64,000 nucleotides of DNA from an uncultured Chloroflexia bacterium (lineage in GTDB: Bacteria; Chloroflexota; Anaerolineae; JAAYZQ01). The position numbers and the translations under genes were made by a program. Where the stretch lies: contig CAVOXA010000014.1 of NCBI GenBank assembly GCA_963700285.1, forward strand, positions 1 to 64,000, given 5' to 3'. Position 1 is the stretch's first letter. Every line of letters starts with the position of its first letter. Positions 52,534 through 55,729 of the stretch are shown here, in pieces. The notes under the pieces are model-generated. The model did not search any database. It was not told the origin of the DNA and worked only from the letters and a program-made list of their open reading frames with translations.

Positions 52534-52905
52534 ATGCTAAAGGAGTTCAAAGAGTTCCTCACCCGCGGGAACGTAATCGATCTAGCCATCGCTGTCATCA
52601 TCGGCGGCGCTTTTGGCGCCATCGTAGCCTCGCTCATCGATGACATCATCATGCCCCTTATCGGGCTCTTGCTCGGTGGCGTGGATTTTGCCGCACTTTC
52701 CATCCAGGCAGGCGATGCCGTCATCACCTACGGCAACTTTATCCAGGCCATTGTGAACTTTGTCGTCATCGCGGCCTCGGTCTTTTTGGTGATGCGCGCT
52801 TACAACAAACTGCAGAGAGAAGAAGAGGCCGAGGAGCCGCCCGGGCCCTCAGCGGAGGAAGTGCTGCTGGCCGAGATCCGCGACCTGCTCAAAGAGCAGG
52901 CCTAG
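52534..52905 (+). CDS. mscL: Large-conductance mechanosensitive channel
   Basis: [52 protein letters not shown]. Confidence 0.97.
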
Positions 52906-53327
52906 TAGCGGCCCTCATCCAGAAGCAGATCATCCCCACCCACGACGTGCCACTGGCGATCGGCCAGCGGAGCTGGCATGGGCGCTGGCCAGTAACCTGC
53001 CTGCGGCCCTGGGGCCAATCCGGCTGGATTGCCCCCACCCTGGATCACGACCACCGGAGGGTAGTTGCCCTGGTCGGTCCGCCGCCGTTCCCCGCCAGAC
53101 TGATCCCGATTGCGCCGCGTGAGCGCAACCAGCAGTAGCAATGAGGTAGGAATGCTCGCGGCCACACCGCAGATCACGCCGACCACCACGGCCATCGCCT
53201 CGGTACTCATCTGCCGACCCACAACCACAGCCAGAACCGCAGCAAATACAGCGCCCACCACCAACACCACGTGCCTGGCGTTTCCGCCAAATCCGCCCAC
53301 ATTCAAGCCCTGCTGATCGTACTCCAT
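52902..53327 (-). CDS. Small two-TM membrane protein with a Pro-rich tail
   Basis: Two hydrophobic helices, then YPPVVVI and WHVVG; last gene of the operon; its stop overlaps the mscL stop. Confidence 0.75.
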
Positions 53328-53330
53328 CCA

Positions 53331-53660
53331 TCACCCCCTGTCCCAGCTGTCCTGGCTCACAGCCCAACTGCCAGCCGGCTTCGCATCCAGCTCCTCCAGG
53401 GGCGCTTGAACCAGGGTTCCAGGCACTGGTATGCGCTCCTGAGAGCCAGCAGGTCCGTCAGCGACTGCCAGTCGAAAAGACAGACTCAGCGCCCGCAGCG
53501 CATCGGTGAATCCCTGTTCATAGCCATCTGTGAAGGCGAGACGCCGGACATCGTATTCCTGGTCGTCGCCAGAGGCCACAGCCAGCGCAGATCTCATCGT
53601 CTCATGGGTACTGGCCAGAATCCGAAGCACATCCTCGCGGAACCACAGATCCAATGCCAT
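53331..53660 (-). CDS. Hypothetical protein (109 aa)
   Basis: RBS GAGGGAG; 14 nt after the FtsK stop and 3 nt before the next gene. Confidence 0.7.
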   Translation of the reverse strand: MALDLWFREDVLRILASTHETMRSALAVASGDDQEYDVRRLAFTDGYEQGFTDALRALSLSFRLAVADGPAGSQERIPVPGTLVQAPLEELDAKPAGSWAVSQDSWDRG

Positions 53661-53674
53661 ATCTTGTTCTCCCT

Positions 53675-54829
53675 CTAGTCCTGTCTTCCAGGCTTCAGGC
53701 GCAAGCGCAGGCGCCTGGTCAGAGCCACACCTCGAGCTGCAGATCCACTGCTGTCCTGCGCTACAGCCAGCAAGGGCTTCCCCCCGCTTCGAAGCCCTTT
53801 CACCATCTCCCGGACTTCACCATCGGTGATGTATGCCGCCTGTAGGCGCGTCAAGCGTCCCTTGGCCACCACCACAAAGTCCCCCTGCCCCATCAACCGC
53901 TCCGCCCCCGTGCCTGCCAGCCCCGTCGCCACCTTGGCATCCTCAGGACTGGCCACGCTGCCGACCAGTCGCACCGGAAAGTTGCTCTTTACCAGACTGC
54001 CGATGACCGACGCTGCCGGCTTTTGGGTGCAAGCCACCACGTGCAGCCCCGCCTCCCGCCCCCGCTGCGTAAGCCGGGTCACCGCGCCCTCCACCGCCCG
54101 GCCTCCCACTTGAACCAGGTCCGCCAGCTCGTCCAGTACGATCACTACCCGCGGCTCCGAGCGCCCCTCCAGATCCCGCTGCTCCATCTCTGCTACCATC
54201 CGGTTCAGCACCGCCACTACCTCATCCAGCCGCGTCACGACCGGCCCCAACAGGTGCGGCAGCCCTTCAAAGGGCATCAGCCCCCTGCCTTTAGGGTCCA
54301 CAAGTACAAATTGCAGTTGACGCTGGCTATTGTACGCCGCCAGCGAAGCAACCATCGTCCGGGCCAGCGCCGTCTTGCCCGAACCCGTGGTGCCCGCCAG
54401 CAGCACGTGGACGACATTCGGACTGGGCAGCCGCAGCAGTAGGGGCGCCCCTTCCCCATCCAGACCCAGCACGGCCGTCACAGGAGGTACCAGCCTTGCG
54501 CCAGCCGTGCCAGCCTGACGCACCGCCAACTGACGGCCCGCTAACTGGCGGCAGAGGTCCCACAGGCGGATCACCTGTCCGTCGCTGCGAGGCACCTCCA
54601 CCTGCATACGTCCATCCTGGCGGTATACCCTGCAAGACGGCACCCCCAGGCTGAGAGCCAGCTCCTCGGCCAGGCCGGCCACCTGCCTGACTTTGACCCC
54701 AAAGGGCGTGGTCAGATCATAGCGCACCATCCGCGGGGTGACCTTGCCCCCGGTCACCCGGCCCGGTACCTTGTGGCTGGCCAACACCAATTCGATGCGG
54801 TCCGCCTGGTAGTGTAGAACCTTGCTCAT
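53675..54829 (-). CDS. FtsK/SpoIIIE-family DNA translocase motor (no TM domain, no gamma domain)
   Basis: Alpha-domain-like N-terminus, Walker A GTTGSGKT, VDPK, Walker B VLDELADL, GREAGLH..CTQKP, GAERLMGQGD; GGAGGAG RBS. Confidence 0.9.
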   Translation of the reverse strand: MSKVLHYQADRIELVLASHKVPGRVTGGKVTPRMVRYDLTTPFGVKVRQVAGLAEELALSLGVPSCRVYRQDGRMQVEVPRSDGQVIRLWDLCRQLAGRQLAVRQAGTAGARLVPPVTAVLGLDGEGAPLLLRLPSPNVVHVLLAGTTGSGKTALARTMVASLAAYNSQRQLQFVLVDPKGRGLMPFEGLPHLLGPVVTRLDEVVAVLNRMVAEMEQRDLEGRSEPRVVIVLDELADLVQVGGRAVEGAVTRLTQRGREAGLHVVACTQKPAASVIGSLVKSNFPVRLVGSVASPEDAKVATGLAGTGAERLMGQGDFVVVAKGRLTRLQAAYITDGEVREMVKGLRSGGKPLLAVAQDSSGSAARGVALTRRLRLRLKPGRQD

Positions 54830-54892
54830 GCCTGTACTCCTCCGCGCCGACGTCTTGCTGGCGCGCTGCCGATTCTTTGCCGGGACACGGGC

Positions 54893-55357
54893 TCAGCCGG
54901 CTGCCGCGATCCGGCTCCGGACCGGAAAGGCCACGATCTTGCCGTTGCTGGCTGCCGGACATTGCTGCGCAGCAGTTTGTGGTGCAGGTGCATCCACCAG
55001 CATGCGCAGTGCGCAGCCCAGGCAGGTCCGGGCATGCCTGACAGGCACCACCTTGGCGGCACAGGCAGCCTCCTGCAGGCGCACCTCCGGCGGATCATCG
55101 TCCCACACCTCCGTACGCCCGTTGAATCGGATGGTCAGCGGGCTCGGCGAGGTCTGCCGCAGAGAAAAACAAAGGTGTTGGCAGTTGATCGCCTTCACAG
55201 GACAGGCATGGCAGATCTCGGGGCCCACGGCGTTATCGCCCTCGACGATCTTGGTGCAGATGATGCGGCCGGCCTTGGATACTGCACGATGGTCGCACGC
55301 ACTCTGACCCAGCCTTGCCACGGGTTGCTTGCCAGCAATCGGAAAGTCACGGATCAT
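54893..55357 (-). CDS. Cys-rich putative zinc-binding protein
   Basis: 10 Cys in 154 aa, two CxH...C...CxxC modules; GGAGGGAG RBS before ATG 55357. Confidence 0.7.
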   Translation of the reverse strand: MIRDFPIAGKQPVARLGQSACDHRAVSKAGRIICTKIVEGDNAVGPEICHACPVKAINCQHLCFSLRQTSPSPLTIRFNGRTEVWDDDPPEVRLQEAACAAKVVPVRHARTCLGCALRMLVDAPAPQTAAQQCPAASNGKIVAFPVRSRIAAAG

Positions 55358-55389
55358 ATGTCTCCCTCCCAGCCTGCGCCTCCAGGGGA

Positions 55390-55662
55390 TCATCTAGTCC
55401 CAGGTACTGATTCCTCTCCAGGTCTCGACGGCGCCGGCTCCAGTCCAATCGGGCGCAGGCCTCGCGGACTGCGGGCCCTACGCTCGATGAGGCCGCCACG
55501 CTCCAGCGCGTGCAGGTAGTAATGAACGTGCGATCTACTGCAAAGACCCACCGCCGCCCGGATCTCTTCGTAGGTCGGCGGAAAGCCATTGCCAGTCACA
55601 AAAGACTGGACGAAATACAAGACGTCTTCCTGCCGATTCCTCTGTCGCTTTGCCATTTCCAT
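55390..55662 (-). CDS. LexA N-terminal DNA-binding-domain-only protein
   Basis: RQEDVL.F, GFPPTYEEI, GL.SRSHVH..L..LE..GLI.R....RGL. It ends with no Ala-Gly site or S24 peptidase domain. Confidence 0.8.
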   Translation of the reverse strand: MEMAKRQRNRQEDVLYFVQSFVTGNGFPPTYEEIRAAVGLCSRSHVHYYLHALERGGLIERRARSPRGLRPIGLEPAPSRPGEESVPGTR

Positions 55663-55686
55663 TTGCTGACCTCCATCTCCTAAAAT

Positions 55687-55729
55687 CGAACATTTGTTCT
55701 ATTTTACCAGAACCCGCACAATTCGTCAA
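55687..55729 (-). promoter_or_regulatory. Sigma70 promoter with an overlapping LexA (SOS) box
   Basis: Minus strand TTGACG(55729-55724)-N17-TAAAAT(55706-55701), immediately followed by AGAACAAATGTTCG (GAAC-N4-GTTC, 55688-55699). Confidence 0.85.

Follow-up and report, generated by a model that had tools for sequence, protein, structure and literature searches.

Among the described DNA motors of the FtsK kind, Escherichia coli FtsK carries a membrane domain, a linker, the alpha-beta motor and a gamma domain on one chain that is essential for division, and Bacillus subtilis SftA is a paralogue that has no transmembrane helices and keeps the gamma domain. The archaeal Ced importer combines a damage-linked membrane protein with an ATPase, CedB, which is of the VirB4/HerA type. 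In E. coli the SOS response induces ftsK through the dinH promoter (PMC4080785), and FtsK without gamma is reported to still translocate and to be unable to activate XerCD (PMC3130261). SftA is recruited to the septum by other proteins, through an amphipathic helix with SepF/FtsA, and has been tied to ciprofloxacin sensitivity (PMC9320952). In Streptomyces, the plasmid-borne TraB, a FtsK-type motor for double-stranded DNA, binds clt repeats and, helped by the small co-encoded membrane proteins called Spd, distributes plasmids through cross walls, the hosts often being filamentous (PMC4447253). YneA, SosA, ChiZ and DivS are small membrane proteins under LexA control, often encoded next to lexA (PMC6851548). 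The locus analysed here, which recalls each of these systems in part, lies in the first 64,000 nucleotides (forward strand; hereafter the window) of contig CAVOXA010000014.1 of an uncultured Chloroflexia bacterium (assembly GCA_963700285.1; class Anaerolineae in GTDB), where an earlier annotation, the sequence-only reading, had described an SOS-boxed operon of five genes around a bare FtsK motor as a candidate damage-induced DNA transfer system. The locus encodes a real, widespread and apparently undescribed variant of the FtsK kind; the sequence-only reading knew of no description of the gene set, and none was found in literature searches whose coverage of subscription papers was limited and did not extend to supplementary regulon tables.

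What is conserved is a core of two genes, for the motor and for a two-helix membrane partner, and not the set of five. Scoring covered 92 distinct loci in genomes and 18 close loci in viral contigs; loci with too little flank were dropped count by count, and the members, being relatives, are not independent. The partner lies downstream of the motor at each of the 78 genome loci scored for it, and 77 of 85 have a LexA box in the 1300 nucleotides upstream (one end mismatch being tolerated), the background frequency being 11 of 336 windows; of the eight loci scored as box-less, two have boxes a little beyond that distance and one is a copy of the phage type. The remaining genes vary: a Cys-rich protein is encoded in 22/80 loci and a 109-residue protein in 13/78, a LexA fragment is found in this genus only, and a DUF6504 gene and a gene for a 97-residue protein accompany 21/69 and 25/69 loci, respectively. 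The LexA fragment, the Cys-rich protein and the 109-residue protein would be optional extras, and the idea of five genes forming one unit had to be given up, although gene order and the upstream box did prove conserved for the core. By taking together the evidence set out below, the core pair may be an auxiliary, damage-induced, direction-free pump for double-stranded DNA at the host's own septa, a reading to which we assign a probability of roughly 0.45.

Of 301 genomes of the class, 186 yielded the motor at an E-value of 1e-95 or better. Chloroflexota, mostly Anaerolineae, account for 79 of the best 80 titled loci (best 80 of 466, with 20 of 64 parts scanned), and Litorilinea and Caldilinea are among the carriers named there. 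A sample of the phylum, in which four candidates were scored per genome, gave family-level motor scores in 7 of 401 genomes, three of them outside the class, and ordinary FtsK scores only in 25 genomes of one family within it; four unpublished genomes (G369, G078, G297 and G201) enter this sample in the denominator only, and a search of the phylum with the partner profile, which scored 14 candidates per genome, was not used for the range. The partner family comprises 2,219 clusters at 50% identity, the best 150 of which are 112-230 residues long. The pair would rank among the most conserved SOS outputs of Anaerolineae, which are common in sediments and digesters and whose SOS response is little described.

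In the window, five co-directional open reading frames, spaced by 32, 63, 14 and 3 nucleotides, follow a promoter on the minus strand. On re-examination the genes, the promoter and the GAAC-N4-GTTC site all proved real. In the direction of transcription the features are:

55701 to 55729, minus strand: sigma-70-type promoter, with the -35 hexamer TTGACG at 55729, a 17-nucleotide spacer and an extended -10 hexamer TAAAAT ending at 55701
55688 to 55699, no strand assigned: perfect LexA operator GAAC-N4-GTTC, one base past the -10 hexamer
55390 to 55662, minus strand: DNA-binding domain only of LexA2, about 88-90 amino acids (PF01726, E 8e-15)
54893 to 55357, minus strand: Cys-rich protein of 154 amino acids with 8 invariant Cys, accessory
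53675 to 54829, minus strand: FtsK alpha-beta motor of 384 amino acids (PF17854 and PF01580 above cut-off), core gene
53331 to 53660, minus strand: protein of 109 amino acids with no family assigned, accessory
52902 to 53327, minus strand: membrane hairpin partner of 141 amino acids with two predicted helices, core gene

The GAAC-N4-GTTC sequence occurs twice in the 64 kb against 0.61 expected, and 12 of 100 shuffles reach two, so that the box by itself is within chance; its position and conservation are beyond it. The second occurrence, at 53408, falls within a coding region and was treated as a chance match. Elsewhere in the genome lexA, uvrB and two RecA-like genes have this box in front of them, so that GAAC-N4-GTTC is very likely the LexA operator of this host.

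The surroundings are those of a chromosome. The stop codon of the partner gene overlaps that of the convergent mscL, and profile searches identified the flanks as mscL and a ThiS/MoaD gene, in line with the ordinary neighbours noted previously. Signs of a mobile element, which the sequence-only reading had failed to see nearby, were not recovered as far as they were looked for: no tyrosine integrase was matched on the 1.04-Mb contig and no serine resolvase in the genome (89% complete), and neither att-like repeats flanking the operon nor a repeat array near it were found, whereas relaxase and Rep families were not searched for. The window gave no tRNA, and its part from 50000 to 58000 no match in Rfam. 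With no integrase match on the contig and housekeeping flanks common to the sister species, a plasmid or integrative-element context like that of TraB was not found, and the locus stands as a conserved chromosomal module behind a LexA box, with a bare FtsK motor and its membrane partner as the basis.

The motor chain begins at the alpha domain, has no membrane segment (highest 19-residue hydropathy, 1.34) and ends about 50 residues past the motor, with no match to the gamma-domain family PF09397, which is matched by both full-length paralogues of the genome. Its best matches among solved structures are FtsK motors (E 2e-75). The Lys and Asp of the Walker A and B motifs, the catalytic Glu, the sensor Gln and the arginine finger are invariant in 64/64 family members, and of the basic DNA contacts reported for FtsK, namely R632, K643, K657 and R661 (PMC7321959), the positions of R632, K643 and R661 hold Lys or Arg in 50, 47 and 49 of 50 chromosomal members, respectively. 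Because the catalytic residues are kept, gamma is missing and gamma-less FtsK still translocates, the motor is likely active and sequence-blind. It shares with E. coli FtsK the alpha-beta motor and, as predicted from the box, SOS-tied expression, but it is a separate third paralogue without anchor or gamma on its chain, with a separate partner and with phage relatives. It shares with SftA the absence of transmembrane helices; however, where SftA relies on an amphipathic helix and other proteins, the window motor has a co-encoded hairpin partner and a LexA box. Two full-length FtsK paralogues are present in most of the searched genomes of the class (including L054, L055 and L255-L284). Plasmid and cultured-phage collections returned generic FtsK matches only, with best listed identities of 31-37%. 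A type VII secretion ATPase (EccC/EssC) was considered and rejected, with scores of 56-58 bits against cut-offs of 347-778 and a single ATPase domain accompanied by the FtsK alpha domain.

The partner has hydrophobic helices at residues ~19-37 and ~45-69 joined by an outer loop of 8 residues; across the family this loop measures 8-11 residues and basic residues flank both inner ends, according to the predicted topology. The tail that follows is Pro/Gln-rich, 53-103 residues long across the family and predicted to be cytoplasmic, with a PPVVV motif and a terminal RxFxVVG. Such a small two-helix membrane protein likely tethers the motor. Three holin profiles each weakly matched 1 of 64 partner proteins, which was not taken as evidence. 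The end of the tail recalls the full-length enzymes: in 16 of 28 full-length Anaerolineae FtsKs, by a strict pattern, a PRIIGG-type motif closes the Pro-rich linker right before the alpha domain, with 0 matches across 6,859 further N-terminal residues, and comparison of the partner terminal motif with this linker end by hhalign gave a score of 17.2 and a probability of 19%, the score exceeding those of all 100 column shuffles as well as of two control linkers. The match may lend modest support to a split FtsK, although the likeness could equally be mimicry by an inhibitor; the partner motif found no match in the linkers of full-length FtsKs from a set made up mostly of other classes. The distances between motors are correlated with those between partners (rho 0.55 with n=64, against 0.23 or less in shuffles), as linkage alone can produce.

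On these grounds the following sequence of events can be proposed for a pump at the septum. Upon DNA damage, LexA cleavage would free the operon promoter. The cytoplasmic tail of the partner would then dock on the alpha domain of the motor, standing in for the linker of the one-chain FtsK, and motor hexamers would assemble and drive DNA that is trapped or has not segregated through the closing septa or out of them, neither reading KOPS (FtsK orienting polar sequences) nor activating XerCD. Clearing DNA at septa, which the sequence-only reading had named as an alternative, would fit the anatomy of the predicted proteins best, and this reading also draws support from three loci (L095, L099 and L107, at about 9070-9750) in which an SOS gene, that of the SOS-associated peptidase (SRAP), separates the two core genes. 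An FtsK found in nature with its anchor on one chain, its motor on another and no direction domain would illustrate how a pump can be put together when it is needed.

Several observations weigh against this proposal. The linker-motif match spans 12 columns with a one-residue offset at the Phe, and it was put to the test after it had been noticed. Comparison of the whole partner with the host's two full-length FtsKs gave no significant match, and neither a fused partner-motor protein nor a longer form of the partner was found in what was a weak search. At K657, which is among the two DNA contacts of loop I, just 8 of 50 chromosomal members have Lys or Arg. The host already possesses, elsewhere in the genome, two full-length FtsKs with gamma domains, and a pump without a direction cue could drive DNA the wrong way. 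Finally, both this species and its sister have, at the same site, a solo LexA-boxed partner gene that is served by a promoter of its own (L022:6158-6625 and L242:3927-4445; contig C10 here); it is intact in the sister species and interrupted by a one-base frameshift in this assembly, and it hints at a role independent of the motor.

A different proposal, to which the solo genes lend support, is that of an SOS division checkpoint, in which the hairpin would hold up septum formation, its look-alike motif perhaps acting as a competitor at the alpha domain of the housekeeping FtsK, and the motor would sense or clear DNA and so time the release. The SOS division inhibitors of monoderms are likewise small membrane proteins encoded beside lexA (PMC6851548), lexA lies upstream of the core in 36/80 loci, and anchor-less SftA has been proposed to delay septum synthesis (PMC9320952). 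However, inhibitors of the YneA/SosA type have one helix, an outside C-terminus and no motor partner, whereas the protein found here has two helices, a tail predicted to lie inside and a constant motor, and an inhibitor alone would leave its constant pairing with a catalytically intact motor unexplained. We regard a checkpoint of this kind as doubtful.

The core pair is also found in phages. In an alignment scan 50 viral contigs carried a relative, where a scan with the single protein had found nothing. Among the closest 18 viral loci the partner follows in 15/17, and the box is present in 0/17. Motor tails exceed 100 amino acids in 16 of 18 viral motors and are 87 amino acids or shorter in 90 of 91 genome copies; the phage tails share a conserved three-helix pattern, for which neither a solved sequence or structure nor a Pfam family was matched, and they showed no match to the host gamma domain either. 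At 13 of 20 viral loci, a scan of 105 chosen proteins revealed a terminase, portal, capsid, tail-type protein or integrase/recombinase. In a quick tree of 83 of the 155 motors, in which long branches were flagged, the family forms one clade (98 in the Shimodaira-Hasegawa-like approximate likelihood ratio test, SH-aLRT), far from full-length FtsK, with viral members interspersed and at least four changes on well-supported branches, so that the core pair appears to move as a unit between phage and chromosome, in a direction that the tree does not settle. The suspicion that homologues might reside mainly in mobile elements was borne out in part: close relatives of the pair do occur in phage contigs and in a prophage, but most genome loci are boxed chromosomal operons. 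If the chromosomal pair is a septal pump, phages would use the same pair, with a helical tail of their own added, on their own genomes.

The phage copies often lie beside genes for a ParM-like actin, ParA, or membrane proteins with a C-terminal helix-turn-helix (L187, L188, L189, L186, L199, L200 and L202), and in a prophage-like region (L241:8922-10590, genome G001) the partner is encoded upstream of a distant helical-tailed motor, near a ParA gene. A FtsK gene that may or may not belong to the motor family is mentioned, without analysis, in a Chloroflexus phage (PMC8597652).

Sharing with phages raises the question of whether DNA can cross the walls between the cells of a filament, for host repair or for phage spread. 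Many Anaerolineae grow as filaments, and the pair might, as the sequence-only reading had proposed, transfer DNA between cells or filament compartments after damage. The DNA would serve as a repair template, and phages would spread along filaments by means of the same pump. The precedent is TraB with its Spd proteins (PMC4447253), to which the tailed phage version comes closer, the conserved three-helix tail sitting where a DNA-recognition domain would be expected; the movement of the pair as a unit between phage and chromosome can be counted on the same side. However, the window system is chromosomal and LexA-boxed and has no recognition tail, no repeat array lies near the operon, and the phage tail gave no match to a family or a solved structure. 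The partner has an outer loop of 8-11 residues and neither a wall-binding nor an outer domain, and the motor scored 25.9 bits against a cut-off of 800 with the TraB profile (NF041214) and 14.5 bits against 700 with that of CedB (NF041017), having instead the FtsK alpha domain; for the partner, a search limited to the profiles of NCBIfam and Pfam gave no Ced match. A TraB- or Ced-like transfer thus found no direct support, and the transfer reading is considered unlikely. The same holds for its extended form, a wall-crossing filament pump traded between host and phage, whose LexA-controlled, sequence-blind host version would share chromosomes for repair while temperate phages would add a recognition tail and spread their genomes without virions, which we hold to be rather improbable.

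A function unrelated to septa can be considered as well, namely a membrane-tethered repair or anti-phage motor that would strip proteins off damaged DNA or pull on incoming or induced phage DNA. FtsK is reported to remove roadblocks during translocation (PMC3130261), SRAP and DUF6504 genes join the operon at some loci, and the exchange of the pair between phages and hosts would suit such a role. However, PADLOC returned generic ATPase-domain matches only (SspH, Mad8) and none for the partner, the Cys-rich or the 109-residue protein, and the genes that recur in the operon included no recognisable nuclease. This possibility is considered distinctly improbable.

The history of the window copy bears on whether it is functional at all. 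The genome holds a second, fuller copy on contig C9 (L021:7004-11638), with the order box-lexA1, two boxes-lexA2, Cys-rich gene, motor, a degenerate 109-residue gene, partner, DUF6504, the 97-residue gene and a convergent holA. The window promoter is homologous to the lexA2 promoter of C9 and has kept only the downstream operator, the upstream one (55710-55721) having lost its left half; by sequence comparison, an operon led by lexA2 was duplicated at the level of the genus, and the window has the duplicate. No empty site could be shown; five family relatives have mscL without a module gene in 1.5-kb flanks. The two copies are complementary, the 109-residue gene being intact in the window and the full lexA2, DUF6504 and 97-residue genes being present in C9. 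The LexA fragment of the window has no match to PF00717, that is, it is without the C-terminal dimerization and self-cleavage domain, and breaks off near the point at which full LexA2 has its Ala-Gly cleavage site. In this it is similar to the N-terminal piece left by cleavage, and it would bind weakly and escape cleavage. The truncation, the lost operator half and the phage homologues might suggest a decaying prophage or a duplication remnant without current function. However, the sister species carries the same truncated copy between the same flanking genes, and the ratios of non-synonymous to synonymous substitution rates (dN/dS) relative to it are 0.17-0.26 for all five genes (0.22 for the LexA fragment), which are under purifying selection. 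With these values and flanks, and with the motor so widespread in the class, the remnant reading is largely refuted and highly improbable.

The LexA2 of C9 has Phe at the position of the catalytic Ser. Among loci with tandem lexA genes a catalytic residue is lost in 4 of 20 operon-proximal lexA2 genes (L021, L027, L090 and L103) compared with 0 of 19 scorable distal lexA1 genes, and the recognition helix of the proximal protein also differs from that of the distal one.

As for the accessory proteins, the true start of the Cys-rich gene at 55357 gives 154 amino acids instead of 166, and the 8 invariant Cys likely form two metal sites. A first model from 12 sequences was unusable, with a predicted local distance difference test (pLDDT) value of 38; one from 132 sequences reached a pLDDT of 74, with confidence for residues ~21-120, and had no Foldseek match in the PDB or viral libraries (best VIA Z 2.8), from which neither a function nor the novelty of the fold can be deduced. 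Atlas matches of the Cys-rich and 109-residue proteins were unnamed clusters only, at 0.80 or below.

Next to the operon, at 56370-61400 of the window, a 2-oxoacid dehydrogenase cluster (E2, E1 alpha/beta and E3 by translation) is disrupted by several frameshifts, which are probably assembly indels. Elsewhere in the genome, the two LexA-boxed RecA-like genes (L051:2990-3967 and L041:1645-2285) are 62% alike and ~33% like two other RecA-type genes of the genome, and a DUF6504 gene follows one of the boxed pair about 2 kb downstream; they may possibly belong to ImuA-type mutagenesis cassettes. A perfect GAAC-N4-GTTC is present just upstream of mraZ (L053:2396), the usual head of the division cluster, with no consensus promoter scored around it, and LexA boxes are found at strong promoters before phage-like genes for an AAA_25 helicase, a primase-polymerase and unnamed proteins (L044:1291, L046:1420, L047:3961, L048:1180 and L052:2731).

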